Source: Planctomycetota bacterium (lineage in GTDB: Bacteria > Planctomycetota > MHYJ01 > WSZJ01). From it: a stretch of 43,530 bases of DNA. Numbering within the stretch: the stretch's first letter is position 1; the number at the start of each line of letters is the position of its first letter. This document shows, piece after piece, positions 1,456-43,530 of the stretch. The stretch is taken from positions 1 through 43,530 of the forward strand of contig JBBTCT010000040.1 in assembly GCA_038060895.1 (NCBI GenBank), written 5' to 3'. The translations under genes and the position numbers were made by a program. The notes beneath the pieces were generated by a model that made no database searches, was not told the DNA's origin, and saw only the letters and a list, made by a program, of their open reading frames with translations.

Positions 1456-3000
1456 ATGAACTTCGCGGAAACCGCTTATCTGTTCCGCCACGCTCTCCTG
1501 CGCGATGCTGCGTACCAGCTTCAGCTCCCCGGCGACCGCGCGCGGCTTCACGTGCTGGCGTTCAGGGTTCTCGAACAAGCGTCCGGGGGGCGGGCGCCTG
1601 AGCCGGCGCACCTGGCCGGTGAGGGAGCTGCGGCCTTTCAGCCGCACCAGGCGGATTCGGCGGCGCTGGAGCTTGCCGGGCATGCGCGGCTCGCACTCGG
1701 TGCGCCGGACGTCCTTCCAAGCGCCGAGCTGCCCGACCTTCGCGCCGCGCTGCGGCTCTATCTGCGCCGCGCGGCCGAGCATGCGGAAAGGCAGTTCCGG
1801 TTCGAGCTGTCCTGCACCTGCTGGCGCGGGCTTGCGGAAGTCTTCACGGGAAGCGAGAAAGGTGAATCCCTTCGCCGCGCAGCCGTGGCGACCTGGAGCG
1901 GAGGTCGATTGCGGAGTGCCGAGCCGCTTCTGGGCGAAGCGCTCGCCGTCTTGCGCGAGGCCGGCGACCGGCGACTGGAGGGCGTCGCCCTGGCGAGCAT
2001 GGCCAACCTGTATCGGGAGACCGGACGCGCGGCGCTTGCCGAGCGCCTGTATGGGGAGGCGCTCGTGATTCACCGCGAAGTCGGCGACCCGGGTTCCGAG
2101 GGAACTACGCTGAGAAATCTGGGAATCCTGTACTGGGAATCCGGGAATGTCGTGGAGGCCGAGCGCATTCACGGGCAGGCGCTCGCCGTGTACCGCGAAG
2201 CCGGCGACCGGCGTGCGGAGGGAGTCGCCGTGGGGAACATAGCCCTCCTGTACCAGGGAACCGGGCGGGTGGAGGAGGCCGAGCGTTCCTACGAACTCGC
2301 ACTCGCCATTCGCCGCGAAATCGGCGACAGGCGGCTGGAGGGAAGCGCGCTCTCAAACCTCGCGGGGCTGTACCAGGAAACCGGGCGGCACGACCGCGCC
2401 GAGCACCTGTTCGAGCAGGCGATTGCCATCGCCCGGGAAGTCAGCGACCGGCGCCTCGAGGGTGTCGTCCTGGGAAATCTCGCCCACCTGTACCAGGAGA
2501 CCGGCCGTTCCCGGCAGGGCGAGGTCACTTGCCTGCAGGCTCTTGCCATCCACCGGGAAGTCGGCAACCGCCGTTCCGAAGGCATCACGCTCGGAAACCT
2601 CGCCAGCCTTTTCCAGGACAGCGGGCGCGCCGGGGAGGCCGAGCAGCTTTTCGAGCAGGCGCTCTCCATCAATCGTGAGGTCGGCAACCGCGGCTCCGAG
2701 GGAGTCGTCCTGGGAAATCTCGCCGGCCTCCTCAAGGTGACCGGTCGGCAGGAGCAGGCCGAGCGCCTGTACACGCAGGCCCTCGCCCTCCATCGCGCCG
2801 TAGGCGACCGGCTCATGGAGGGCTCTCACCTCTGCGGGTATTCCCGCCTCCTGCTCGAGCGGGGACGATGGGTCGAAGCGCGCCAGGCCTGGCTGGACGG
2901 CGAGGCCATCCTGCGGGAGATCCGCGACACGACGGAGCTGGCGCGCCAGGCCGCCGCCATGCGCGAGGCTTACGCGAAGGCGGGCGTGCCGTTCCCCTAG
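1456..3000 (+). CDS. Tetratricopeptide-repeat protein (40-aa repeats) with N-terminal FRHALLRDAAY motif
   Basis: About 8 repeats of the type ALAIHREVGDRRxEGxxLGNLAxLYxETGR; purine-rich RBS ggggagg before the ATG. Confidence 0.88.
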   Translation: MNFAETAYLFRHALLRDAAYQLQLPGDRARLHVLAFRVLEQASGGRAPEPAHLAGEGAAAFQPHQADSAALELAGHARLALGAPDVLPSAELPDLRAALRLYLRRAAEHAERQFRFELSCTCWRGLAEVFTGSEKGESLRRAAVATWSGGRLRSAEPLLGEALAVLREAGDRRLEGVALASMANLYRETGRAALAERLYGEALVIHREVGDPGSEGTTLRNLGILYWESGNVVEAERIHGQALAVYREAGDRRAEGVAVGNIALLYQGTGRVEEAERSYELALAIRREIGDRRLEGSALSNLAGLYQETGRHDRAEHLFEQAIAIAREVSDRRLEGVVLGNLAHLYQETGRSRQGEVTCLQALAIHREVGNRRSEGITLGNLASLFQDSGRAGEAEQLFEQALSINREVGNRGSEGVVLGNLAGLLKVTGRQEQAERLYTQALALHRAVGDRLMEGSHLCGYSRLLLERGRWVEARQAWLDGEAILREIRDTTELARQAAAMREAYAKAGVPFP

Positions 3001-3041
3001 TGGTGAGTCAGCTTTAATTCCGGCGTGGAGGCCGGCATCGG

Positions 3042-4238
3042 TCAGCGCTTCAGGACGTCGATCGAGGACGCCCCGATAAACGCTCCCAGGCGCTCGAGCG
3101 CCGTGCGGAGGCGCCCCTCGTGCCTGCGAGACTTCTCCCACCAGACGCCGCGGATCTCGAGCGTGCCGGTGTCGCGGCGGAATTTCGGCTCGACGCGCGC
3201 GACAAGCTCCTCGCCGTCGAGCACCGGCATCACATAGTAGCCATGCTTGCGCTTCGGCGCCGGTACGAAGGCCTCGAAGTGATAGTCGAACCCGAACAGC
3301 CGCAGCGCACGTGCGCGGTCGCGAAGGATCGGGTCGAACGGACTGAGCAGGCGCGTTCGATCGGGCGGCGAGGGGAGCCTCTTCAGGCGCGCACGCCAGC
3401 CGGCGACCGCGATCGCCTTGCGCGGCGCCGAGCCGTCGACGGATTCGACCACCACGTTTTCCGCTTCCCCGCGCCCGACGGCTTCACGGCACCACCGGCG
3501 CGCGTCGGACGGCGTGACCGCCCGCCAGAACTGGAAGATCTCGCTGGGGGAAGCGACGCCGAGCCGCTCGAGCGCTGAGCGGCAGGCCCAGTCGGCATGC
3601 TCGCGCGGCTCCGGCGCCGGGAGTCCGTGCACTTCCGGCAGCACGCGTTCGGTCAGGTCGTAAACTTTCTGGAAGGCTTCGCGCCTCACGATCGCGAGCT
3701 CGCCGGAGCGCCAGAGCACCTCGAGAGCCGCTTTCTGCGGTTTCCAGCCCCACCAGCCGCCGGGCTCGCCCTTGCGGTCGTGCTCGAAGTCGCGCGAGAG
3801 CACCGGCCCGTCGCGGCGGATCCGCTCGCGGATTTCGTCCATGATTCTCCGGTAGCCGGGCCCCAGACGTTCGCGAAGCCAGCCGTCGCCGCGAATGCGT
3901 TTCAGGAAGCGAGAGAAGCGATGGCGCCAGTGCGGGAAGAATGAGGTGGGGATGGCGGAAGCGTCGTGGGTCCAGTGCTCGAAGAGGGAGCGGCGTTTCT
4001 CAAGGAGGCCCGACAGCAGCGCGGGGCGGTAGGCGTCGAGGCGGGAGGCGAGCGTGAGGTGGTGGGCGCGCTCAACGACGTTGATCGAGTCGACCTGTAC
4101 GAAGCCCATGCGCTCCACGAGCGACTGGACGGATGCTGCCGTCGCGGGGCGCGCGGGGTCGTCGAGGAGGCCCTGCGCGCCGAGGAGCAGGCGGCGCGCC
4201 TCGGCGGCGCGCACGACGGGCATTATCTTCGCCGGCAT
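3042..4238 (-). CDS. ycaQ: YcaQ/AlkZ-family (HTH_42) interstrand-crosslink repair DNA glycosylase
   Basis: QVDSINVVERAHHL (QxD catalytic motif), FEHWTHDAS, YDLTERV, LLSPFDP, EAFVPAPKRKHGYYVMP. Confidence 0.88.
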   Translation of the reverse strand: MPAKIMPVVRAAEARRLLLGAQGLLDDPARPATAASVQSLVERMGFVQVDSINVVERAHHLTLASRLDAYRPALLSGLLEKRRSLFEHWTHDASAIPTSFFPHWRHRFSRFLKRIRGDGWLRERLGPGYRRIMDEIRERIRRDGPVLSRDFEHDRKGEPGGWWGWKPQKAALEVLWRSGELAIVRREAFQKVYDLTERVLPEVHGLPAPEPREHADWACRSALERLGVASPSEIFQFWRAVTPSDARRWCREAVGRGEAENVVVESVDGSAPRKAIAVAGWRARLKRLPSPPDRTRLLSPFDPILRDRARALRLFGFDYHFEAFVPAPKRKHGYYVMPVLDGEELVARVEPKFRRDTGTLEIRGVWWEKSRRHEGRLRTALERLGAFIGASSIDVLKR

Positions 4239-31128: not shown

Positions 31129-31491
31129 CTACGACTGGCGGACATAGAGCTTGGACCCCTTGGTCCAGGCGGCTCGGGGAAGCGTGTCGAGCTCGAACTT
31201 CTCTTCCTCAAACACGCTCCGCGTGCACGGAACCACATCCACAGGCACATTCAGTCCGCGCAGCAGCCCCCAGGCCGCAACCGGATCCAGGAGCCCGGGG
31301 TCCACGCCGTCCGGCACCACGACCAGCAGATCCCAGTCGCTCCCCTCATGCGCCCGGCCTTCCGCGCGGCTCCCGAAGAGCCAAATTTCTTCCGGGCGCA
31401 TTTTCTCCACGAGCGCCTCCAGGACGGAACGAAGCGCGCACCTTGCCTGCTCCACGGTGCTGGGAGCGAGGATGGTCCTGAGGCCGCTCAT
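31129..31491 (-). CDS. Minimal nucleotidyltransferase (MNT antitoxin-type)
   Basis: IWLFGSRAEG..SDWDLLVV..VDVV; ATG overlaps the DUF4411 stop (ATGA). Confidence 0.88.
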   Translation of the reverse strand: MSGLRTILAPSTVEQARCALRSVLEALVEKMRPEEIWLFGSRAEGRAHEGSDWDLLVVVPDGVDPGLLDPVAAWGLLRGLNVPVDVVPCTRSVFEEEKFELDTLPRAAWTKGSKLYVRQS

Positions 31492-31985
31492 TGGATCTTC
31501 CCCAGGACGAACTTCGCCTTTTCGCGCCTCAGCATCTGAAACGGTGTCATGCACTTCACGCCGACACCCAGGCAAGCGTCAGGAATCTTGACCACTTTTC
31601 TTGCCAGAGGCTCCGGCCTTTCCATGGTGACGACCGTGTAGCCGCGCGCATGGGCGTGGGAGACCAGGTAATAGTCAGCGACCTGGAGAAAGGTGTTCAC
31701 CGCCGCCGGGTCGAATTTCTGGCCTGCGGCCCAGGCGCTGACGGCGCCAAAGGATGCTCGAAGCGCCGGGTCGGGCTTCAAGAACAGCTTTGCTCCCCGG
31801 TTCTTCGCCCACTCGGAGAGGTCATCGCCGCCGGATTCCAGTTCGTCGGCGACCTTTTCGATGCTGAACACTTTGCCGGCCGCGTTCTCGTGCACCAGCC
31901 AGTCCCAGAAGGCAGGGCAGAAGTCGAGCCCGTAGTGAAGCTTGGAGCCCTGGATGAACACGTTCGTATCGAGCAGATAGGGCAT
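31488..31985 (-). CDS. DUF4411-family PIN-like protein
   Basis: YLLDTNVFI..YGLDFCPAFWDWL..ADYYLV..VVTME..KIPDAC. Confidence 0.88.
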   Translation of the reverse strand: MPYLLDTNVFIQGSKLHYGLDFCPAFWDWLVHENAAGKVFSIEKVADELESGGDDLSEWAKNRGAKLFLKPDPALRASFGAVSAWAAGQKFDPAAVNTFLQVADYYLVSHAHARGYTVVTMERPEPLARKVVKIPDACLGVGVKCMTPFQMLRREKAKFVLGKIQ

Positions 31986-33151
31986 CAGACGACTCCGAGG
32001 CTGCTTCCGAGCTTTTCGAAAGTGGCTAGCTTCGAAAACCCGAGGAGCCGGAAAGCTTCGGTGTAGAGGGTCAGGCCTTCGAGGGTCTGGGAGACGAGGG
32101 CGCGGGCGAAGCGCTTTCCGACGCGCGCCGCCTGGGTCAGGTAGAAATCACCTCCGCTCGACTTCGGCTTCGCCAGGAGGCGGGCGAGTTCGCTCTTGTA
32201 GGCCTTCCACATCTCGGCCTCCGTCAGTCCGCCCGCATCGTGGATCCGTCGGAGGATGACCAAGCTGCTCACCTTGAAGACGCCGGCCAGCCGCGCCACT
32301 TCCGTCCAGAGGTCCGCCTTCGGGTGGTACTCCTTCTTGACCGCCGCCAGCGGAACGAGGAATTCCGCGGCGACCCGATTGCACCACCCCTCGGCGCGAT
32401 TCTGGGGAGTCGAGACGGGACGGGCATTGGACAGGGCCGTTTCTCCCAGCCAGACGTGCGCCAATTCGTGCGCCAGGGAGAACATCTGTCCCGCTTTGGT
32501 GTCGGCGCCGTTCAGGAAGACCAGGGGGGCCAGCGCATCGGCGAGGGCGAATCCCCGGAACTCCTCAGGGTCGAGTTTACGCGCGTTGTTGCTTCCCACA
32601 ACGCCGCTGACCATGACGAGGACACCGGCGTCGTCGGCGAGCTCAATGAACCGTCTCAACGCCTCGGTCCAGGTCGGCATTCTCCGACGCTCCTCAAGGT
32701 CGAAGCGAAGGACCTTCCTCATCCCGGCCGCCGTGCTTTCGACGCTGCTCGTCACCTTCGAAGAGCCCACAAAGGGTCGCGCTTCCGCCCCGATCGAGCT
32801 GCAGAACGCGCGATACCACTCCTGGCGCTGCTGGCAGATGTAGATCGTCTCGAGCAGGTCGGGCGAGGGGCGTCCGATGGGCACGTTTTCCATCGTCCGG
32901 AAATCGGGAATGGGCACCGATTCCTCAGGCGGCGTCTCCAGGAACAGGAACCCCACCGGCGTGCGCGTCGCCTTTGCGAATTCCTCAAGCTGGCGAAGCG
33001 TCGGCAGCGAGACCCCGGTCTCCCAGTCGCCCAGGTGCGGGACCCGATGCAACAGCTCCTCAGAATCCAGCCCGGACCGCTCGCGCGCCCATTGCAGGAG
33101 CTCGGGTTTGACTTCCACGCGCAGAACGGAGTTTCCCATTTCCTTCCTCAT
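31985..33151 (-). CDS. XRE-HTH plus ImmA/IrrE (DUF955) zinc metallopeptidase
   Basis: N-terminal HTH (LQWARERSG..WETG..PTLRQL), PDFRT, FSLAHELAHVWL (HExxH), E..CNRVAAEFL. Start may be 33139. Confidence 0.9.
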   Translation of the reverse strand: MRKEMGNSVLRVEVKPELLQWARERSGLDSEELLHRVPHLGDWETGVSLPTLRQLEEFAKATRTPVGFLFLETPPEESVPIPDFRTMENVPIGRPSPDLLETIYICQQRQEWYRAFCSSIGAEARPFVGSSKVTSSVESTAAGMRKVLRFDLEERRRMPTWTEALRRFIELADDAGVLVMVSGVVGSNNARKLDPEEFRGFALADALAPLVFLNGADTKAGQMFSLAHELAHVWLGETALSNARPVSTPQNRAEGWCNRVAAEFLVPLAAVKKEYHPKADLWTEVARLAGVFKVSSLVILRRIHDAGGLTEAEMWKAYKSELARLLAKPKSSGGDFYLTQAARVGKRFARALVSQTLEGLTLYTEAFRLLGFSKLATFEKLGSSLGVV

Positions 33152-33240: not shown

Positions 33241-34444
33241 TTAGGCCTTCAAGAGCGACCGGAAGTACGCCCCCGTCTCCCCATCCGTGTAATAAACCGC
33301 GCAGCTCTTCATCCCCCGCGTCAGCAGCGTCCGGTACGTGTTCTTGATGATAGGCTCAACCAGCTTCTGCGCCGCGACCGGGTCTTCCGCGAACTTCCCT
33401 TTGAACCCGAAGATCGACGTATCCGTGGAAGCCCGCGCCCGGCCGTCGGTGACGACGACCCCCTCCCGGACAACAAGGTCCGGCCCCACGATCACCCCGA
33501 CGTGGTCCAGCTCCAGCCCCTGGCAGGTGTGGATGCACCCGACCTCCTTCACCGACTCGGGCGCCATGATCCAGAGGCTGCCGTCCTTCTCGAGGTTCCA
33601 CCGGGCCCTGAACCCGCACCCCGGGAACTCGATGTCCATCGCCGCGCGGTCCTTCTTCTTCGACACCCAGTTCCAGCAGTACCCCGCCACCATCCGCGCC
33701 TTGTTCGCCCCCTTGTTCAGGTCGTAGATCCGGTCCCGCAGCTCCGACGCCGTGTCCATCACCCGGAAGTCAAACTCCCCCGCCCCCAGGAACGCGTTCG
33801 CGGTCTCGCGGATCTGAAGCGCGTTGTCCAACCACGGCAGGTACCCGTCCGCCCCGTTGCACCGGAACTGCGACGCCAGCGTCCCCCGGTGGATCTCCGC
33901 CCCGAGCTTCCGCGCCCACTTCTCGATCTCCCCGCGCGTCCCGATGTCCTTCAGCGTCACCCGCTGGTCCTCGTCGAGGAAGAACACCGTCACCCTCGCC
34001 CCGCGGATCAGCTCCATCACCTGGTTCTCGCCCGCGATGTACTGCGACCGCACGTTCAGCCGGTGCGCCTCGTCCGCGATCAGCATCTCGAACGCGTCCG
34101 GCTTCGTCTTCGTGAACGACGCCGAGCCCTTGAAGAGGTTCCCGATCTCCGACTTCCGGAGCGACCCCGCGAGTTTCTGTTCGTAGATCACCCGCGGCGC
34201 CTGGTTCTTCGTCACGTACATCGCCAGCCGCCGCTCGCCGGTCATCCGCGCGAGCAGGTTCACCGCCACCACCGACTTCCCCGTCACCGGCCCGCCCTCG
34301 ACGATGAAGACCTGCTTCGCCCCGCCCTCCGCCTTCTTCACCAGGCTCATGCCCGTCGTCGCCCGTCCGGATGTGCTGCTTGATGAACTCCCTTAGCCGA
34401 AGCGCATCCGCCTTCAGGAACAGCGGCGCCCGGTCCACGTGCAC
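33241..34444 (-). pseudogene. DUF2075 (Schlafen group 3-like helicase) gene, 5'-truncated and frameshifted
   Basis: ORF 33241-34350 has GGPVTGKS, DEAHRL, SQFRC, GCIHTCQGLE, YRTLLTRG; out-of-frame upstream fragment APLFLK..LREFIKQHIRTGDDG at about 34350-34444. Confidence 0.72.
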
Positions 34445-34637
34445 CTAGTAGAAGAGGCGGGTCAGCGGCTGGAACGAGGAAGAACTCAGGGTGGCGAAGC
34501 AAAGTTACATAAGTTAATATTTGCACGCATGTTAAGAAAAGTTGCAGACGGTCGATCTTGACTAGTTTCACATTTTAGTTCACCCTATTTTTCACATCTG
34601 GCTACACAAGTTGGAAAGTATGAGGTATGATCGTTTC

Positions 34638-35429
34638 ATGCCCAAAGACTACGATCCGATTGCCGCCGAGCCTCCACGGGAGGTTCCGCTTCCGAAGGCC
34701 CCGCTGATTCGGGTGATCGCTCAGATGAAGTTCCCGCTTATCGCAATGATCGAGCGAAGCGATTTTGTAGCACCCTTTCAAGAAGCGATTCGGGCCAAAT
34801 ACCCAGTCCTTCGACATGAGCCTGCCCCCAAGATCTTTGTCGGAGCTGGATCGCCGCCGGTTCAGGGACCCAGCGCTTGGAGGTTCTCGGACATCCAAGG
34901 ATCTTGGCGAGCCTCTCTCGCCGGCGACTTCCTCGCCCTTGAAACGACTCAGTACAAGAGTCGGACCGATTTCTTCGCTCGGTTCGGCGAGCTTGTCAAA
35001 GCGCTTGACCAACACGTGGGGCCTAAGCTCGTGGACCGGTTGGGAGTTCGTTACATCGACAAGATCTCCGGGCTGGCCATGCAGGGCATCGACAAGTTGG
35101 TTCGACCAGAAGTGCTTGGCATCACAGGGTCGCCCTCCTCGATTCACGCGGAGCACACACTCGCCGAGACAAAATTCACAGCGGACAAAGCCTTCATGAC
35201 AGCGAGATGGGGGTGCCTGCCCGCTGGCGCAACTCCGGATCCGTCCGCGATTGAGCCCATGAGCGACCGCAGCTGGATTCTCGATCTCGACATGTTCAGC
35301 GCGGCTCCCTCAGAGTTCTCGGTGGACACCGTGGTTGCGACTGCCACGCGGTTCGCAGAGCGGATCTATACGGTCTTCCGCTGGGCTGTTACGGATGAGT
35401 TTCTTCGCCATTTCGGAGGCAAGCCATGA
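34638..35429 (+). CDS. TIGR04255-family protein
   Basis: LPKAPLIRVIAQMKFP, WRFSD, LALETTQY, RLGVRYID, ILDLD, FRWAVTDE; start chosen 6 nt after TATGAT (alternatives 34611, 34620). Confidence 0.82.
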   Translation: MPKDYDPIAAEPPREVPLPKAPLIRVIAQMKFPLIAMIERSDFVAPFQEAIRAKYPVLRHEPAPKIFVGAGSPPVQGPSAWRFSDIQGSWRASLAGDFLALETTQYKSRTDFFARFGELVKALDQHVGPKLVDRLGVRYIDKISGLAMQGIDKLVRPEVLGITGSPSSIHAEHTLAETKFTADKAFMTARWGCLPAGATPDPSAIEPMSDRSWILDLDMFSAAPSEFSVDTVVATATRFAERIYTVFRWAVTDEFLRHFGGKP

Positions 35430-36091
35430 ATGGGATCGGCGAGGCTCGTGTCGCGGAATCGACTTCGTCAGGCGGCTCCTTCGCGCCTGTCCGTCGCATG
35501 ATCGTCGTTGGCTCGTTGCTTGCGGCGCTCGGGACTTCCTCAGGGGCCGAGCCCTTGGGCAGCGAGGAGCTGACTCCTGTGCCGGCCGAAATCCAAACGA
35601 ACTCTGGCATCAGCTCTGCCGCTCCGATGCGTCCTGGACTGGCAATCGGGAAGCTCCGTCGGCTGAGCGGGCTGACTTGGGACGAACTCGCTCGCCTCTT
35701 TGGAGTCAGTCGCCGATCGCTGCACTTCTGGGCTAGCGGCAGGGGAATGTCATCCTCCAACGACGAGCACCTGCAGAGGTCTCTCGGAATCATGCTGAGA
35801 ATTGACCGTGGCACCGCACGCGCGAACCGCTCCGCGCTCATGTCCGTACAGGGGGACGGCGTCATTCCGTTCGACGTGCTGATGAGAGGAGAGTATGAAT
35901 CGGTGGTCGCGCGCATCGGGGAGGCTGCAAACCGCGGTCGCGCGACTCTTTCTCCCCTCTCCGAGGAGGAAAAGGCCGCGCGTACTCCACGCCCCCCTGC
36001 TGACTACATTTCGGATCGCAAGGATTCTGGTTATCGCGACGCAGGACGATCTCGAATTGCGAAGAGTGTGAGGAGCCAGGGTGCCCCCTGA
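35426..36091 (+). CDS. XRE-like HTH protein with hydrophobic/low-complexity N-terminus
   Basis: LRRLSGLTWDELARLFGVSRRSLHFWASG; ATGA overlap with the upstream gene. Confidence 0.78.
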   Translation: MNGIGEARVAESTSSGGSFAPVRRMIVVGSLLAALGTSSGAEPLGSEELTPVPAEIQTNSGISSAAPMRPGLAIGKLRRLSGLTWDELARLFGVSRRSLHFWASGRGMSSSNDEHLQRSLGIMLRIDRGTARANRSALMSVQGDGVIPFDVLMRGEYESVVARIGEAANRGRATLSPLSEEEKAARTPRPPADYISDRKDSGYRDAGRSRIAKSVRSQGAP

Positions 36092-36938
36092 TCTTCCTCA
36101 CGATCCGAAGGCCGACGCGGTTAACCAGGCACTTCGTGACTGGCGTCAGGGAGACTGTGTCCTCGGAGAGACGGATTTCGTGCACCTGTTCAAATCCGAT
36201 TATCCGCTTTCTGAAGGGGAATTTGCGGGTGCCGAAGATCCATATCAGATCTTACGGACAGAAGTTCACGGCTTAGTTGTGGTCACCCAGACGTGCGATA
36301 TCCAGCGGCCCTGCAGGGAACGCCCCTTTGTTGAGGTCTGTCCCCTTGTAGAAAAGGACCCTGACGAGATCAAGGCCATCGAGAAGGCGCGTCATCCCAG
36401 ATTCGGATTCGTTCCGGGCGTCGCGGACAGACTCTTGGTTGCGCACCTTGACCGGGTAATGACGGTCGAGAAGCCTCTGGTGGCTTCGTGGACGAGGACC
36501 GCAGGTTGCACTACGGACCGAGAAATGCGCTCTTTTTCGGACTGCCTCTCAAGGAAGCGCTCGCGATTCGCTTTCCCGGATGACTTCGACGAATTCGCCA
36601 AGAGACTCCGGAACCGTCTGCAGCAGAAGCATGGAAATCAAACACCTGAGGGGGAGGCGCTACGGGCGCTTCGCGAGATTCGTGTTCGCGCAGCTCCTTC
36701 CTGGAAGGCCGAGTCCGTATCGATCACGCTGTTTTTCGTGCCTATGGAAGAAGCCGACGATTTTCAGGGGAAGAGCTGGGCGAGCTTCGTCGACGGCTGG
36801 ATGAAGCTCGTTCCCCCAAGCGGGCGGTTCACCAACGTTGCCGGCCTTGTTCAGTACATGGAAGACCTGTCCGCTCTGGACTACGTGGAGAGTGACCGTC
36901 TAGACCTCGACCACTTGTCATCCGTGGACGAGGAGTGA
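36081..36938 (+). CDS. Conserved-looking hypothetical protein (WRQGD / VVTQTCD / RFAFPD motifs)
   Basis: 285 aa; start overlaps the HTH gene by 11 nt; RBS gaggag. Confidence 0.75.
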   Translation: MPPDLPHDPKADAVNQALRDWRQGDCVLGETDFVHLFKSDYPLSEGEFAGAEDPYQILRTEVHGLVVVTQTCDIQRPCRERPFVEVCPLVEKDPDEIKAIEKARHPRFGFVPGVADRLLVAHLDRVMTVEKPLVASWTRTAGCTTDREMRSFSDCLSRKRSRFAFPDDFDEFAKRLRNRLQQKHGNQTPEGEALRALREIRVRAAPSWKAESVSITLFFVPMEEADDFQGKSWASFVDGWMKLVPPSGRFTNVAGLVQYMEDLSALDYVESDRLDLDHLSSVDEE

Positions 36939-37011
36939 TCCTGCAGAAGGGCATGCAGTGATTGCTCAGGGGGCTTCCGCTGGGTAGCGGCAAATCTGTA
37001 GCATCACCCCT

Positions 37012-37752
37012 GTGGAGCGAATCAACCCTCGAAGTCTCGCGGATTCGACCTCCCCCCCGCACTCTGCGGTCCGAGCGCGCCATGGGTCCGAAGGTCATCG
37101 CGCCCGCTTGCGGGACCGCCTCGACCGCGCCGGCCTCGACGCCCTAGCCGACTACGAGATCCTCGAGTTCCTCCTGGGCCTCGCCATCCGCGGCCGCGAC
37201 GTCAAGCCTCTCGCCCGCGCCCTCCTCAAGGCCTTCGGCGGCAGCCTCGGCCGCCTCCTCGACGCCCCGCGCGCCGACATCCTCGCCGTCCCCGGCGCCG
37301 GCCCCGCCGTCGCCGACGCCCTTCTCGCCGCCCGCACCGCCTCCGTCGCCGCCCTCCGCGACCGCGCCGCCCGCACTGACGCCCTCTCCAACCCCCGCCT
37401 CGTCGCCGACTACTGCCGCACCCGCTTCGCCGGCGAACCCCAGGAAGTCGTCGCCGCCCTCCTCCTCGATTCCCGCAATCGAGTCATGGAGACTCGAGTC
37501 TTGAGTCGTGGGACGGTGGATCGGGCGGCGCTGTTTTCGAGAGAAGTGGCCAAAGCTGCCCTGGAGAAGGCGGCGGCGGCAGTGATGGTTGTGCACAATC
37601 ATCCGAGCGGCGAAACGGAACCTTCCGCGGAAGATCGGCGCGTAACTCTAGAAGTGTCCCGGGCCCTGGCCACGGTGGGTGTGCGTTTTGTTGATCATCT
37701 GGTTGTCGGTCGCGAGGGCGTTTTCAGTTTCCGCGAGGAAGGGCAGCTCTAG
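37012..37752 (+). CDS. radC: RadC (JAB/MPN domain) protein
   Basis: GHRARLR, YEILEFLL, HhH VPGAG, E..LLLD, HNHPSG..PSAED, DHLVV. Confidence 0.92.
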   Translation: MERINPRSLADSTSPPHSAVRARHGSEGHRARLRDRLDRAGLDALADYEILEFLLGLAIRGRDVKPLARALLKAFGGSLGRLLDAPRADILAVPGAGPAVADALLAARTASVAALRDRAARTDALSNPRLVADYCRTRFAGEPQEVVAALLLDSRNRVMETRVLSRGTVDRAALFSREVAKAALEKAAAAVMVVHNHPSGETEPSAEDRRVTLEVSRALATVGVRFVDHLVVGREGVFSFREEGQL

Positions 37753-37756
37753 TCAA

Positions 37757-39067
37757 TCAAGAGTTGACCGTGCCGAGAATCGTCGCGAGCCAAGGCACCG
37801 AAAGGCCGCGCATCATCTTGAACTCGTCCGATTCCAGATCCAGACACACTACGCTGAGAAGAGGCTGAGAGTCGCCCACGCGCGGCAACTCGAAAGCAGT
37901 TTCCTTGGATCCCCTTAGGCCTGGATGCCATGGATAGATCAAAGCCAGGTGCTTGCACTTGAGGGCCGCACCGTAGGCGTGCAGTTGATAAACGTCTGCT
38001 GTGTTCGGCACAATGTGCCCCGAGCCCCGTATCTCCAGGCGCTTCCACTTCGTATCAGCGACAAGAACAATCTCGTCGTTTCGCCGCAGGATCAGATCGG
38101 GTCTCAAGTCGAATTCCCTCCTGCCACCGCCCCTAACCAACGTGGCTAGGTGAGCTGTTGTCTCTTGGGAATGAACCTGCACGTCAGAGTGCCGGCTGGC
38201 CTCACGACGACAGTGCTCCGCAACCGCGGATTGAAACAGCAGGTTTATGTCGAATAGAAGTGCCGGTGAAGTGTCCTTACCGGCGCGCAGCTTCGGGGAG
38301 AGTAGAGCGAGAATCCAGCGAACCCAGTCCACGACCGTCCGGTATCGGACGGCGTGCCTGTCGAAGACCAGGCCGTCCAGATCGCGCGCTCCGACCTGGG
38401 AGTCGTCAACTTCCTCGAACACCGCGGCAAGCTCTACCCACCGACGGCTGAGCTCAGCGCGCCGAATCCATGGCCTCACAGCGTGCAACGCCGCCTTGAC
38501 CAGGCGGTTCCACACGTTGTCAGGTGTCAGCTCGTCGAATCGGCAGGCGATTCGGTCAGGCCGATTGGAGTGGATTGCGAACTGCCGGGCCGAGAGGATC
38601 CTGCCTCGGATGACCGCGAGATCCTCCTCGTGCTCCCGATACTGACGCAGGAGTCCACCCCGTACGACCTGCGTGGTGGCGTCGAAAAATGCCGAGATGA
38701 ACACCTCAATCAGGGGAGCGTGTCGAAGCTGTTGTCCAACCGGAAGGTGCCGGAAGATCGGGAACTCAGAGGTCTTGCGAAGTAGGCGAAGCAGCAAGCC
38801 ACGGCAGCTGTCAGGAGTCGACAAAGAGTCGATTTTCGGCAGGATCTCGAGAACTCGGTGTCCGGTAGTCACGAGCCCGCAGTAATGAGCCAGCTTGACG
38901 GAGCGGTGGCTTCGTTCGCAAAACCCGGGACGCATTCCGGCGAGGCGCTCGAGATTCTCCGCCTCCGCAAACGAAAGTGCCTCCGCGGATTCGAGTTCCT
39001 GAACCGGGATTGGCTGGTGCTCGACGGCGGTGAGGTAACGCGGTGGCAGGGGCGTTGCTCCTCTCAA
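37757..39067 (-). CDS. mcrC: McrC-family restriction endonuclease subunit
   Basis: LEILPKI, DNVWNRLVK, LFD..LLF, PD..DTKWK nuclease motif, ADVYQLHAYG, LIYP. Confidence 0.9.
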   Translation of the reverse strand: MRGATPLPPRYLTAVEHQPIPVQELESAEALSFAEAENLERLAGMRPGFCERSHRSVKLAHYCGLVTTGHRVLEILPKIDSLSTPDSCRGLLLRLLRKTSEFPIFRHLPVGQQLRHAPLIEVFISAFFDATTQVVRGGLLRQYREHEEDLAVIRGRILSARQFAIHSNRPDRIACRFDELTPDNVWNRLVKAALHAVRPWIRRAELSRRWVELAAVFEEVDDSQVGARDLDGLVFDRHAVRYRTVVDWVRWILALLSPKLRAGKDTSPALLFDINLLFQSAVAEHCRREASRHSDVQVHSQETTAHLATLVRGGGRREFDLRPDLILRRNDEIVLVADTKWKRLEIRGSGHIVPNTADVYQLHAYGAALKCKHLALIYPWHPGLRGSKETAFELPRVGDSQPLLSVVCLDLESDEFKMMRGLSVPWLATILGTVNS

Positions 39068-41001
39068 CCTCGAACTTCACTGTCGGCGTCCGAGGTCGCT
39101 GGAGAGTAGATGGCACGGAAATCACCCTCCGTCCATGTCTCGGCCTTGGTTATCACAAATCGATCGCGAGATTCCGGCACTCCCTCTGAGCTTGGCCCGG
39201 CAAACAGATCCCGATGAAGAACTCGCTGACGGGAGACAAACGCCGATGCGGTTGCGGAAGTCGAAAGCACTGTCGCAACTCGAGCGAAATCGTCGAAGAA
39301 GTACTCCTGGAGCAAGGGAATGATCTGTACTCGGAACACCCGTTGCAGGTCTTCGAGCGAGCCCAAATTCATCAGGTACGCGTGGCCGATGCGATGATCT
39401 CGGTCGAGCAAGAACTCAAGCCGGTCGTTGATCTGTCTGAGAAGACTACCGAGGTCGATCTTGCCGACAGATCCAAGGAGCGTCTCGTTGGGCTCCATCT
39501 CCATGAACTCGAATCGCCTCCGCAACGCGACATCGAGAAGCGCAATGGAGCGGTCTGCAGTGTTCATCGTGCCGAAAATGTCCAGATTTGGAGGGACTCC
39601 AAATCTGGGCTCCGCAACCTCTGCATCCTCTCCGCCCGGTAGCTGGACCGCCATCCCGTGAGTCAGGCGGCCGGCCTCGTCGAAGACCGCGCGCTTGTCC
39701 GGCTCAATCAGAGTGATCAACTCGCCGAAGACCTTGGCGATGTTTGCCCGGTTAATTTCATCAATGAAGAGTGCGTAACGTTTGCCCGGATTTCTCCGAG
39801 CCTCGTCACAGATCTGCTTGAACGCTCCATCGACGACCCGGAATTGAGTTGCCCCATCCTCGCCGACCGCTACGGGCCGGATGCCTCGCACGAAATCCTC
39901 GTAGCCGAAGGAGGGGTGAAAGGTGACGGTCCGATACCTCCGAATGGCTTCACTTGTGCTCGTAGACTTTGTGCCAAGCAGGCGCAAGAGGTCGACCGAT
40001 TCCGGGTCAGCGTCCTTCCAGTCGGGCATCAATTCCCACTCGCTGTTCTCAGATTTCGAGAAGATCGCGGGCGGCCGTCGGTTCGCGGCCTTTACGGTGG
40101 TGCTTGATTCGGGCGTGTGATCCATCAACCGTCCCCAGATTGTTGACGTGACGGAACCGGCCAGGCGACCCCTCTCCCGCGTCTTTGCGCTCACCCACCG
40201 ATGCGCCCGGATTTCCGGCACGCGCGCCGGACGCCCGAGGTCGGCGAGTGAGGCAGCGATCACTGATCGCCACCCAAAGGCGGCCAATGTCTCCTGAATT
40301 CGAGTGTCCTCATCGACTTCCTCGGGCGCATCTGTGTAGTCTGCGAACTTCGCTCGCAGCCAATGGGTCTTTCCGGTGCCCGGAGGTCCGTACAGGATCA
40401 GGTTCTTGCACGGCGTCTTCTCTGTGCGAACCGGCTGGGGGACGGGCCGAGTCGACTTCCGACTCCGCAGCGCCTCGATCGTTGCGAACATTTTCTGAAA
40501 CTTGTCGTCGGAGACTAGAAAGACATTGTTCTGCCCGGCAGCTTGAATGATCTCGCAAATCCGCGGGTGATCCTTGGACAGGAATTCCTGGAAGGACACC
40601 AAAGGGTCCGGCGACGCGTAAGTGCGCTGGTACTTATGGCGCTTGGAGACTTCGCGGAAGCCACCGAGAGTGGAGACAATCTCTTCATGCACCTTCGCCA
40701 GACCCTTCGGCCGGGCCCCTCCGAATACGATTTCCAGGTAGCACTTTGAAGGGTCGCCTGCCTCGTTGAACAAGACCACGAAACCTACTGTCTTTGTCTT
40801 GTTGTTCTGGTCGTTCGGCCGGAAGGGGGCAAAGAACAGGTAGTCATCGTTTCCGGTGAACCAGTAACCCTTCGCGAGGCGGCCTTCGTCGTTGTCTCGG
40901 GTTCGAAAACAGAATCTGAATTCTGGGTGATTGGCTCGCCATGCGAGCGCTGCCCCGAGTAGCTGTTCGTGCCAGGCGGCGATCTTCTGCCACGCGTCCA
41001 T
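39064..41001 (-). CDS. mcrB: McrB-family AAA+ GTPase
   Basis: GPPGTGKT, TFHPSFGYEDFV, IDEINRANIAKVFGELITLIE, GTMNTADRS, ALRRRF, IGHAY, PLLQEYF. Confidence 0.93.
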   Translation of the reverse strand: MDAWQKIAAWHEQLLGAALAWRANHPEFRFCFRTRDNDEGRLAKGYWFTGNDDYLFFAPFRPNDQNNKTKTVGFVVLFNEAGDPSKCYLEIVFGGARPKGLAKVHEEIVSTLGGFREVSKRHKYQRTYASPDPLVSFQEFLSKDHPRICEIIQAAGQNNVFLVSDDKFQKMFATIEALRSRKSTRPVPQPVRTEKTPCKNLILYGPPGTGKTHWLRAKFADYTDAPEEVDEDTRIQETLAAFGWRSVIAASLADLGRPARVPEIRAHRWVSAKTRERGRLAGSVTSTIWGRLMDHTPESSTTVKAANRRPPAIFSKSENSEWELMPDWKDADPESVDLLRLLGTKSTSTSEAIRRYRTVTFHPSFGYEDFVRGIRPVAVGEDGATQFRVVDGAFKQICDEARRNPGKRYALFIDEINRANIAKVFGELITLIEPDKRAVFDEAGRLTHGMAVQLPGGEDAEVAEPRFGVPPNLDIFGTMNTADRSIALLDVALRRRFEFMEMEPNETLLGSVGKIDLGSLLRQINDRLEFLLDRDHRIGHAYLMNLGSLEDLQRVFRVQIIPLLQEYFFDDFARVATVLSTSATASAFVSRQRVLHRDLFAGPSSEGVPESRDRFVITKAETWTEGDFRAIYSPATSDADSEVRG

Positions 41002-41088: not shown

Positions 41089-43530
<2,442 letters not shown>

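Follow-up and report, generated by a model that had tools for sequence, protein, structure and literature searches.

A 43,530-nt contig from a Planctomycetota bacterium (the whole stretch is called the window here) carries three co-oriented genes at the broken end of a helicase gene, and the question raised by this trio is whether it encodes a toxin-antitoxin (TA) system controlled by a third protein. In the original prediction, gene 3 was a PemK/MazF-like toxin, gene 2 its autorepressing antitoxin, and gene 1, of the TIGR04255 family, a chaperone or phage sensor analogous to the SecB-type chaperone of toxin-antitoxin-chaperone (TAC) systems. Gene 1 (34638-35429, + strand) encodes 263 aa from the ATG at 34638, which is the start called in the public database (P0121); alternative starts are ATG 34620 and TTG 34611, the latter giving 272 aa (34611..35429, + strand). 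Gene 2 (35426..36091, + strand, 221 aa) and gene 3 (36081..36938, + strand, 285 aa) follow with overlapping stop and start codons, as had been claimed. Read directly from the letters, the first junction is ATGA at 35426-35429, and at the second the GTG of gene 3 (36081-36083) precedes the TGA of gene 2 (36089-36091), with GAGGAG at 36070-36075. These junctions are identical in contigs from other studies' sequencing runs. An RNA library yielded one 213-base contig inside gene 2 and left most of the operon without RNA cover; DNA carry-over is possible in such libraries.

The trio is lower in GC than its flanks and has its own AT-rich upstream region. In 400-base windows, GC is 0.51-0.64 across 34400-36999, compared with 0.66-0.68 at 33400-34399 and 0.72-0.76 at 37000-37599. 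The AT-rich region (34464..34637, + strand, GC 0.51) forms the left end of the insert and contains the sole promoter-like site upstream of the trio (TACACA-17-TATGAT, 34603-34631; 0.5 expected in shuffles) as well as two short direct repeats (13 nt at 34497 and 34534; TTTCACAT at 34566 and 34590), and we infer that it may be the operator. Next to it lies a 5'-truncated DUF2075/SLFN-type helicase gene (33241..34463, - strand), consisting of an ORF at 33241-34350 (PF09848, E 1.4e-91) and an upstream coding remnant to 34463. The homologue in a genome of the same genus (G401) is 87% identical and has a 646-aa open frame, versus 383 aa in the window. Aligned by blastn to the G401 gene, the window's copy falls into two pieces (34350-33262 and 34463-34350) separated by a 131-base deletion, and DNA homology to this intact gene stops at 34463, with nothing past that point. 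The DUF2075 gene is truncated and marks the insertion boundary of a lower-GC insert, so that the comparison with G401 upholds the placement of the trio at its break point. A search for flanking repeats or a target-site duplication around the insert returned short, chance-like repeats only, and no + strand terminator was found downstream of gene 3.

The trio sits within a restriction/abortive-infection island in the window. On the left are genes for a nucleotidyltransferase (31129-31575, - strand), DUF4411 (31488-31985, - strand) and IrrE/M78 (31985-33151, - strand), and on the right genes for RadC (37012-37752, + strand), McrC (37757-39067, - strand), a McrB-like AAA_5 protein (39064-41001, - strand) and a type I R subunit (41089-43530, - strand). 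Elsewhere, 8 of 11 related loci are flanked by restriction, Abi, nuclease or transposase domains. Conjugative plasmids carry the trio too, in one case next to a tyrosine recombinase. The gene-breaking insert and the plasmid copy speak for horizontal mobility; it is from the neighborhood only that an anti-phage role is suggested.

Homologues of the three genes co-occur, as would be expected of a functional unit. The order gene 1-gene 2-gene 3 is kept in 11 of 12 related loci, and seven or more phyla are represented (Myxococcota, Planctomycetota, Nitrospirota, Pseudomonadota, Actinomycetota, Acidobacteriota and Bradymonadales); at locus L028 a stretch of N follows gene 2, where gene 3 may be present or absent, and at L011 the interruption in the match to gene 3 likewise corresponds to a stretch of N. 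Among 401 genomes sampled in the window's phylum, 71 carry TIGR04255 and 11 carry gene 3. Every genome with gene 3 also has TIGR04255, which lies directly upstream of gene 3 at 10 places. This recurring arrangement exceeds chance.

Gene 3 has 2434 relatives at E ≤ 1e-3 and matched no family in Pfam (E ≤ 0.01), NCBIfam, PADLOC or PHROGs. Its model (pLDDT 89.3) has a first domain at about residues 17-165, bearing the motifs WRQGD, TQTCD and FPDDF, and an alpha/beta C-domain at about residues 165-283. In Foldseek searches with this model, 12/12 matches at E ≤ 0.001 were MazF chains. VIA-align gave Z 9.9 with MazF-mt3 (8zws_A; rmsd 2.9, 102/105 residues aligned), 9.1 with S. aureus MazF (4mzm_A), 8.4 with CcdB (1vub_A) and 7.6 with Kid (1m1f_A); besides 8zws_A, six MazF/CcdB chains matched at Z ≥ 8. 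The N-terminal domain is therefore predicted to have the MazF/CcdB/Kid SH3-like barrel fold, which among solved structures is known chiefly from TA toxins. Of the PemK/MazF resemblance first proposed, the fold and the alpha/beta C-domain stand, but membership of the PemK sequence family does not: the model PF02452 (PemK/MazF) fails to match gene 3, hhalign of its profile against the PemK protein of a sister cassette (L036) returned nothing, and a profile search of solved chains gave a best E of 1.5 to an unrelated chain. In the ESM Atlas, MazF clusters came up for gene 3 with TM values of just 0.39-0.41, short of the threshold set by the tool. The proposed motif reading also holds in part, with WRQGD present in 17/17 gene 3 ORFs from the loci and the Cys-Asp pair in 16/16 readable ones. 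The conserved residues (Gln-Gly-Asp, Cys-Asp and several Arg/Lys) include an invariant set of W21, Q23, G24, D25, C72, D73, R76 and others, and what we take to be the catalytic Arg and Thr/Ser positions of MazF appear, by eye, to be replaced. Inserted helices and the 120-residue C-domain are further features of the protein. Fold matches of the C-domain are middling (Z 6.0-7.3, a common range for VIA-align) and include minimal nucleotidyltransferase (MNT) and HEPN-MNT entries (8xeh_E, 2rff_A, 1no5_B) and a MafB2-CT/MafI2 complex (8hhj_A); the MNT motif G[GS]...DxD was not seen among the conserved columns of this domain. A tblastn search of phage genomes found no match to gene 3.

The absence of PemK sequence signatures, together with the fact that most partner families described below are unknown, could also be accommodated if gene 3 were a non-toxic nucleic-acid-binding or regulatory SH3-like barrel protein, in a trio devoted to regulation or maintenance of the element rather than to TA. 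We consider this quite improbable, given that the slot of gene 3 is occupied by PIN and PemK proteins in sister cassettes and that gene 2 resembles antitoxins. Furthermore, 21 distinct places include 5 with a broken gene 3, at three of which the adjoining gene 1 is intact, a pattern that fits a costly gene and that MAG assembly errors could also produce.

The antitoxin likeness of gene 2 is supported at the level of profiles. About the first 70 residues of the protein form an N-terminal extension, in which TSSG-type motifs and a hydrophobic segment are found; an Xre-type HTH and an MbcA/ParS-like domain follow (about residues 70-167), and there is a basic tail. In Pfam at E ≤ 0.01, gene 2 itself matches only HTH_3 (E 4.5e-4, 20.6 bits, under the cut-off of 23) and MerR; among family members, HTH_3 was found in 8/17 and Xre-like-HTH (PF20432) in 4/17 at E ≤ 0.01, with a best value of 4.5e-4. 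No match of gene 2 to the Pfam models PF20432 and PF09722 rose above threshold, and a PF09722 search of the window's genome found another locus and not gene 2. NCBIfam likewise returned nothing for gene 2. Among solved sequences, MbcA (6fkg_C) ranks best, at E 0.015. When 17 gene 2 relatives were compared by hhalign with 8 PF09722 antitoxins encoded beside RES-type ORFs, the match reached a probability of 93.9% (E 1.6e-7) over 98 columns, corresponding to gene 2 residues 70-167. By this profile comparison, gene 2 appears to be a homologue of Xre/MbcA/ParS antitoxins across both the HTH and the putative toxin-binding domain. The N-terminal extension is conserved in the alignment of gene 2 relatives. 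The first suggestion that its hydrophobic segment might make gene 2 chaperone-dependent has only indirect hints in its favor, namely gene 1-gene 2 fusions without this segment.

The prediction for gene 1 fared less well. Gene 1 matches TIGR04255 over model positions 2-252 of 252 (E 1.4e-40; 139.8 bits, cut-off 30), has 1637 close relatives, is the sole TIGR04255 copy in its genome, and belongs to no Pfam family. Its model (pLDDT 89.4, pTM 0.87) has an alpha/beta, internally pseudo-duplicated TBP-like fold. For the SecB-like fold that had been proposed, there was no match to the Pfam SecB model and no SecB chain among the fold matches listed, nor did gene 1 match a known chaperone. A sequence search of solved structures returned chance-level matches only (E 1.5). 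Even the best fold matches reach middling scores only (Z ≤ 8.1), with DNA-binding and kinase domains among them. The McsB/arginine-kinase catalytic domain ranks first (Z 8.1, 180 residues aligned; Foldseek probability 0.99), ahead of TBP, AdoMetDC and Med18/20. Foldseek matches also include TBPs (weak, TM 0.25-0.31) and a rolling-circle Rep. As McsB/arginine kinase is the best whole-domain match, a variant of the non-toxic reading would make gene 1 a phosphagen-kinase-like enzyme that modifies its partners. Over 87 TIGR04255 sequences, however, the only columns conserved at ≥85% are P22, P56, Y106, Y139 and F247, and the enzyme reading loses weight, since the classes of TIGR04255 share no conserved polar residue and no catalytic-type residue is invariant. 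The lack of family-wide polar invariants is more in keeping with binding than with catalysis.

TIGR04255 almost always heads tight three-gene cassettes with exchangeable last two genes, which co-vary as pairs. Sorting of 85 TIGR04255 places identified recognized toxin families as the third gene in 7/85 cassettes (PIN at 6 places and PemK at 1), gene 3 itself at 10 places, relatives of its Cys-Asp domain at 8 (hhalign 96% and 78%), and DUF7689 and a metallo-beta-lactamase fold at 3 places each. The third gene belongs to unknown families in one pair found at 28 places and in four other recurrent pairs found at 10; housekeeping-type genes follow TIGR04255 at 4 places (one lineage), and 10 places have no clear class. 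That PIN, PemK and further families all lie behind the same head gene supports the view of gene 1 as the constant component. At both junctions the genes overlap by a median of 4 bases, and they are ≤10 bases apart in 61/74 and 60/71 cases, figures favored by the use of first-start ORFs chosen close to the preceding gene. On a tree of gene 1 proteins, those from trios group in a single clade (22 rows, SH-aLRT 97), and its sister group consists of gene 1 proteins whose third gene is a gene 3 relative. Partner labels change 26 times on this tree versus 57.9 in shuffles, a count that alone is no proof of co-evolution, as related sequences share labels. PADLOC, PHROGs and NCBIfam returned nothing for 20 partner proteins of other cassettes, and the commonest partner toxin candidate (L052) fell in unnamed clusters only in the ESM Atlas. 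With its overlapping reading frames and kept gene order, and with middle and third genes that cluster in matched pairs behind TIGR04255, the trio conforms to the general genetic layout of type II TA systems. TIGR04255 is present in about 1/6 of the genomes sampled in the phylum, and cassettes extend across phyla and onto plasmids.

Some cassettes are fused. Besides locus L003, four further 50%-identity clusters contain gene 1-gene 2 fusions, of which P0243 is the cleanest and lacks the gene 2 N-terminal extension; one gene 2-gene 3 fusion (P0392) is the only longer fused form of gene 3 found. Some of the fusion junctions look like frameshift errors. These fusions bear on a further possibility, namely that gene 1 is a DNA-binding regulator of the operon, as omega or PaaR are, and not the protein partner of the antitoxin. 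Gene 1 does come first in the operon, its TBP-like fold brings Foldseek matches to TBPs and the rolling-circle Rep, and the middle genes of many other cassette classes carry no recognizable DNA-binding domain. In the trio, however, an HTH is already present in gene 2, the TBP matches are weak (TM 0.25-0.31, as above), a 263-aa regulator without a basic surface motif kept across classes would be unusual, and fusion of gene 1 to gene 2 argues for a single protein complex. Altogether a regulatory gene 1 is very unlikely.

The same modularity can be read as that of a sensor-effector defense cassette instead of an addiction-type TA module. TIGR04255 would then sense a phage cue (a nucleic acid or phage protein) on its TBP-like sheet, gene 2 would be an effector-specific adaptor or inhibitor, and gene 3 an exchangeable effector, with gene 1 activating the system and not stabilizing the antitoxin. 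One constant gene with many alternative effectors is a modular defense pattern, the setting is that of a defense island both in the window and at 8/11 other loci, and a TBP-like fold can bind nucleic acid. A MazF-like domain also serves as the effector in a validated variant of Gabija (PMC13069673). A common ligand site would nevertheless predict conserved residues, and no set is kept across TIGR04255 classes; nor did PADLOC or PHROGs offer a match, and both the fusion of gene 1 to gene 2 and the antitoxin likeness of gene 2 are compatible with this reading and with TA alike. We regard a sensor-effector cassette as unlikely.

What the analysis shows are the folds and homologies, the conservation of the trio and the modularity of the TIGR04255 cassettes; starting from these, we place the balance of probability slightly on the side of a mobile, translationally coupled tripartite toxin-antitoxin-accessory module, with TAC-like logic and an unrelated accessory. 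Gene 3 would be a growth-inhibiting effector, built of a divergent MazF/CcdB/Kid-fold domain and an alpha/beta C-domain, whose target is most likely nucleic acid. Gene 2, with its HTH and MbcA/ParS-like toxin-binding domain, would be the cognate antitoxin of gene 3 and probably an autorepressor. Gene 1 would be a non-enzymatic accessory that acts on gene 2, most likely by holding its N-terminal extension, such that neutralization of gene 3 by gene 2 would depend on gene 1. Loss, titration or inactivation of gene 1, for example by phage infection or loss of the element, might then free the toxin. A broader proposal, to which we would give somewhat less than an even chance, is that TIGR04255 is a TBP-like universal guardian or sensor placed over at least a dozen interchangeable inhibitor-effector pairs. 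These would constitute a large unrecognized tripartite superfamily with SecB-independent three-component control of toxins, probably serving abortive infection or mobile-element upkeep.

As originally anticipated, the trio matches no named defense system in the databases searched: in PADLOC-DB v2.0.0 (2023), genes 1, 2 and 3 matched 0 families at E ≤ 0.01, and PHROGs gave 0 matches for the trio proteins. Literature searches did not find "TIGR04255" or "DUF7689" in any paper, and those on tripartite TA systems returned TAC-type and unrelated work only. The trio suggests a family of tripartite toxin-antitoxin or defense modules not described so far. If TIGR04255 plays a TAC-like accessory role, a widespread family without known role would gain a function. 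If the model is true, gene 3 would represent a toxin family of its own, MazF-like in fold and distinct in its set of conserved residues, alongside several further candidate toxin families; a gene pair behind TIGR04255 would provide a genomic handle for new toxins, antitoxins and possibly defense effectors; and an antitoxin made dependent on a third protein would be a testable prediction.

The closest known systems each resemble the trio in part. With the toxins MazF/PemK/Kid and CcdB, gene 3 shares the predicted fold of residues about 17-165 (Z 7.6-9.9), and as in type II TA systems it takes the final place in a coupled operon, after a gene that resembles antitoxins. It differs from MazF/PemK/CcdB in its own invariant set, its inserted helices, its C-domain and the lack of a PF02452 match, and its partner is an Xre/MbcA-like rather than a MazE- or CcdA-like antitoxin. 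A divergent MazF-like effector domain within a multi-gene system in a defense context also describes GajC of Type II Gabija (PMC13069673), which is likened to gene 3 by description only. The partner of GajC in that account is the UvrD-type helicase GajB, without a TIGR04255 or Xre gene. The core of gene 2 aligns over the HTH and the next domain with the antitoxins of Xre-RES/MbcT-MbcA and ParS-ParT systems, but gene 2 stays below the family thresholds, is longer by its N-terminal extension and its basic tail, and is paired with a MazF-fold protein instead of the RES or ParT toxin of those systems. The omega-epsilon-zeta and paaR-paaA-parE systems are, like the trio, three-gene operons whose first gene is neither toxin nor antitoxin. 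Their first genes encode small dedicated repressors, unlike gene 1, which is 263 aa long and TBP-like, with the HTH residing in gene 2. Three-component TA systems are rare, and the best understood, TAC, uses one accessory family, the SecB-like chaperones. The chaperone-addiction element of TAC is C-terminal. Both the TAC antitoxin and gene 2 carry an extra segment outside the core; that of gene 2 is N-terminal, the accessory is TIGR04255 with a TBP-like fold and no SecB among the matches listed, and the gene order is accessory-antitoxin-toxin, in all of which the trio differs from TAC. TAC systems have been reported to act in phage defense (10.1101/2024.02.24.581848; PMC11618068; PMC9098466). 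It is with TAC, exemplified by M. tuberculosis HigB-HigA-SecB-like chaperone and CmdTAC, that the trio shares its overall design of three genes in which a constant accessory accompanies varied toxin-antitoxin pairs.

TIGR04255 genes almost always head three-gene cassettes with paired downstream genes, which is the main new result of this analysis, and the operon in the window is one version of such a cassette. Its three open reading frames proved to be real and as first described, all on the + strand: gene 1, the TIGR04255 gene, at 34638-35429 (the 263-aa form is the public database call, P0121; alternative starts are TTG 34611 and ATG 34620), gene 2 at 35426-36091, and gene 3 at 36081-36938. 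Direct reading of the sequence confirmed the overlapping stop and start codons, ATGA at 35426-35429 for genes 1 and 2, and GTG 36081 with TGA 36089-36091 for genes 2 and 3, with GAGGAG preceding. The operon is indeed lower in GC than its flanks (0.51-0.64 vs 0.66-0.68 and 0.72-0.76), and the AT-rich leader noted earlier, which spans the 170 bases just before gene 1, contains a pair of short direct repeats and one promoter-like site. In contigs from other studies' runs, the two gene junctions and the two outer boundaries were identical; an RNA-library contig that lies inside gene 2 does not count as evidence of transcription.

Window 1-31000 encodes housekeeping-type proteins (e.g., GyrA, aminotransferases, a TonB-dependent receptor). 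The stretch from 31129 to the window end encodes a nucleotidyltransferase, a DUF4411-IrrE/M78 pair, a DUF2075/SLFN-type helicase, the trio, RadC, McrC, a McrB-like ATPase, and a type I restriction R subunit. Judged from sequence comparison, the trio is an insert within this variable island, because the DUF2075 gene is truncated, as originally noted (383 aa here vs the 646-aa frame of its 87%-identical homologue in G401, a genome of the same genus), because DNA homology to G401 stops at window 34463, the exact start of the AT-rich leader, and because RadC and the nucleotidyltransferase are ordered differently in G401. No flanking repeats were found around the insert. GC in the island peaks at 0.72-0.76 at window 37000-37600, where RadC starts, adjoining the 0.58-GC end of gene 3, and this jump is another sign of a mosaic island. 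At window 31488-33151 (-), a pair of genes is separated from the truncated DUF2075 gene by 90 bases: the IrrE/M78 peptidase gene is immediately followed by the DUF4411 gene (PIN-like, E 1.6e-51), their stop and start codons abutting at 31985. Among PADLOC models, the peptidase matches RmrA (best E 2.2e-17) and capP, and the two genes are a candidate second toxin or defence pair in the island. The end of the DUF4411 gene is overlapped by 88 bases by the small nucleotidyltransferase gene (NTP_transf_2, E 1e-11; 31129-31575 (-)).

The three genes were found to travel together. In species-representative genomes, the order gene 1-gene 2-gene 3 on one strand was seen at 11 of 12 gene-3 loci; at the twelfth, gene 2 is present, gene 3 is interrupted by three stop codons, and gene 1 gave no match. 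Trio loci, like the cassette loci mostly from metagenome-assembled genomes, span at least seven phyla or orders. Among 401 genomes of the window's phylum, the gene 3 profile was detected in 11 and TIGR04255 in 71 (vs 0/14 control genomes); all 11 gene-3 genomes carry TIGR04255, and at 10 places it precedes gene 3 on that strand by about 0.7 kb. The trio copy of G197, from the same genus as the window, is only 38-48% identical, so the copies were acquired independently. Relatives of gene 3 occur on seven plasmids, five of them of conjugative type, and a plasmid of Chroococcidiopsis thermalis PCC 7203 carries the trio next to a tyrosine recombinase; its annotation there reads 'TIGR04255 family protein / transcriptional regulator / hypothetical protein'. 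Phage records gave no gene 3 match. At 8 of the 11 loci scanned, the neighbours include restriction, Abi, nuclease, SNF2 or transposase domains, a raw count with no background control from 55 of 60 listed flank ORFs (four from L002 and a short one from L012 were left out), and neighbours at L001, L004, and L012 are ordinary. In a Sphingomonas paeninsulae plasmid (L058, 3601-5786), the gene table, known to be incomplete, has a TIGR04255 gene and a gene 3 relative with nothing tabulated in the 590 bases between them, the expected site of gene 2; the neighbours of this pair are AlpA, an MT-A70 methyltransferase, and a Fic protein.

Gene 3 could not be assigned to a family with Pfam, NCBIfam, PADLOC or PHROGs, and its 2434 relatives at E <= 1e-3 are all without a name. 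The original prediction of a PemK/MazF-like protein holds for the modelled fold, but no PemK sequence link was detected. In the predicted structure (pLDDT 89.3), the N-terminal domain has the MazF/CcdB/Kid fold: MazF chains account for all 12 Foldseek matches at E <= 0.001, and VIA-align gave Z scores of 9.9 (MazF-mt3, 102/105 residues), 9.1, 8.9, 8.7, 8.4 (CcdB), and 7.6 (Kid). The model also contains the expected alpha/beta C-terminal domain, with middling fold matches only. Invariant residues include W21, Q23, G24, D25, C72, D73, R76, P88, and L89, and the Cys-Asp motif is kept in 16/16 readable ORFs from the loci. Gene 3 would be the toxin. It is broken at 5 of 21 distinct places (L012, L006, G022, G199, and G376), and an intact gene 1 adjoins three of these broken copies. 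Such damage fits a costly gene; assembly errors could give the same picture. In L028 and L011, gene 3 is unreadable because of 100-base N runs, within gene 3 in L011 and right after gene 2 in L028.

For gene 2, the antitoxin-like character originally proposed was supported by a profile alignment, at 93.9% probability, of residues 70-167 with eight PF09722 proteins, all bona fide antitoxins from related genomes. Gene 2 itself scores just below the HTH_3 cut-off; 8 of 17 relatives match the HTH_3 model, and 4 of the 17 match an antitoxin-type Xre-like HTH. Among solved sequences, its profile ranks MbcA best (E 0.015), which is the antitoxin of MbcTA in M. tuberculosis. The core is preceded by an N-terminal extension of ~70 residues that includes a hydrophobic stretch and TSSG-like motifs, and is followed by a basic tail. 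Gene 2 would be the antitoxin and a probable autorepressor. Genes 1 and 2 form a single 463-aa frame in L003 (2098-3489 (+)), and a comparison of this frame with 1.84 billion cluster representatives gave four more proteins spanning both halves among the matches listed (P0243-P0246), placing gene 1-gene 2 fusions in five 50%-identity clusters, L003 included. In P0243, a complete gene 1 end leads directly into the HTH core without the N-terminal extension, and two of the other fusions have frameshift-like junctions. One protein of 524 aa (P0392) is a gene 2-gene 3 fusion.

The neighbourhood survey of TIGR04255, which covered a sample of one phylum and 12 loci found elsewhere, found cassettes of the TIGR04255 gene and the next two genes at nearly all of 85 places (88 rows minus three partial, namely a fragment of 113 residues in G199 and two rows, in G119 and G165, that score under the cut-off). 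In 74 non-trio chains, with each ORF read from its first start codon and chosen for closeness to the stop before it, genes overlap or lie <=10 bases apart at 61/74 junctions of gene 1 with the second ORF and at 60/71 of the second with the third, and both junctions have a median overlap of 4 bases. Middle and third genes group into matching pairs, the middle-gene family tracking the third-gene class. Gene 2 with gene 3 occupies 10 of the 85 places, and gene 1 with gene 2 but no readable gene 3 another 2 (one with an N run there). One unknown pair is found at 28 (both partner clusters at 20, one cluster at 8), relatives of the gene 3 Cys-Asp domain at 8 (HMM of the gene 3 family alignment, E 4e-10 to 1e-4; hhalign 96% and 78%), PIN at 6, PemK at 1, DUF7689 at 3, a metallo-beta-lactamase fold at 3, and four further recurrent unknown pairs at 10. 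Downstream content was not classifiable at 10, and M48 peptidase with dihydroorotate dehydrogenase, at 4 places of one lineage, are probably unrelated neighbours.

The commonest pair (L052 2238-3115 (+), with genes at 2238-2696 and 2693-3115; L041, L045, L050, and ~24 more loci) encodes proteins of ~155-220 aa and ~116-190 aa, with no Pfam or NCBIfam match and only unnamed ESM Atlas neighbours. The metallo-beta-lactamase-fold third gene, ~340 aa (L096 1713-2756 (+), L101 806-1825 (-), L110 39-1079 (-)), follows a matching middle gene of 233-275 aa and is a candidate nuclease-type effector, unlike classical small TA toxins. In a TIGR04255 tree (91 proteins, quick method, LG+G4; three short or odd rows and one ORF-less place left out), trio gene 1 proteins form a single clade (22 rows, SH-aLRT 97), whose sister comprises gene 1 proteins with a long Cys-Asp-domain protein as third gene. 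Partner labels change 26 times on the tree vs 57.9 in shuffles (0/200 as low), with relatedness alone giving some clustering. Four proteins of genome family f42 (L069, L073, L076, and L079) form a long-branch clade (SH-aLRT 100), followed after a 21-131-base gap by the M48 peptidase and dihydroorotate dehydrogenase genes and no small gene pair; TIGR04255 may be domesticated in this clade or serve an unrelated purpose there.

Four features point to a tripartite toxin-antitoxin-accessory module: gene 3 has a toxin-type fold, gene 2 has an antitoxin-type core, PIN and PemK take the place of gene 3 in sister cassettes, and the head gene is constant. From these folds, homologies and gene patterns, of which every structural statement on the trio refers to predicted models, we infer toxicity, neutralisation, gene 1-gene 2 contact, a trigger, and any phage defence. 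Gene 1 would be a non-enzymatic partner of the antitoxin, acting via the gene 2 N-terminal extension. The main rival keeps the same parts but casts gene 1 as a sensor switching on exchangeable effectors; it would take the varied third genes behind the constant head gene as those effectors. A lesser rival has no toxicity in the trio at all.

Gene 1 was rightly assigned to TIGR04255 (E 1.4e-40) and matches no Pfam family. Its model (pLDDT 89.4, pTM 0.87) has a TBP-like alpha/beta fold, internally duplicated. Its top fold matches, all of middling score, are led by the McsB kinase domain (Z 8.1 over 180 aligned residues) and include arginine kinases, TBPs, AdoMetDC, Med18/20, and RepD. An enzymatic gene 1, a lesser rival to which the kinase matches would be congenial, is opposed by conservation: across 87 sequences covering every class, after removal of four long-branch rows, conservation reaches >=85% only at P22, P56, Y106, Y139, and F247, and therefore TIGR04255 has no family-wide catalytic-type residue. 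A DNA-binding regulator, also a lesser rival, would draw on the TBP matches, middling as they are; the HTH core of the operon lies in gene 2. In BFVD, the best viral neighbour of the model is an unnamed protein of 202 aa, A0A515MGR4 (E 1.3e-8, TM 0.65 by target); TBP-like proteins of giant viruses come next in the ranking, with scores well below it.

The trio matched none of the PADLOC (2023) and PHROGs models, in agreement with the original expectation of no named system, and newer defence model sets may list the family. TIGR04255 and DUF7689 were unmentioned in the literature searched, and keyword searches on related three-component systems found TAC-type (toxin-antitoxin-chaperone) work only; supplementary tables of TA-network surveys may list the family. 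A recent study found a MazF-like domain to be the defence effector of a Gabija variant (PMC13069673). Gene 3 shares the predicted fold of MazF and CcdB and its proposed action would be alike, but it is not PemK by sequence; gene 2 is a distant relative of the MbcA/ParS antitoxins, below family thresholds. The proposed logic of the trio would be that of TAC systems, with an accessory that appears to come from an unrelated family. The trio is likened to TAC systems without a claim of membership, because no SecB-like chain is among the listed fold matches of the gene 1 model. We read it as a putative three-component TA system, a known kind, with an apparently unrelated accessory.
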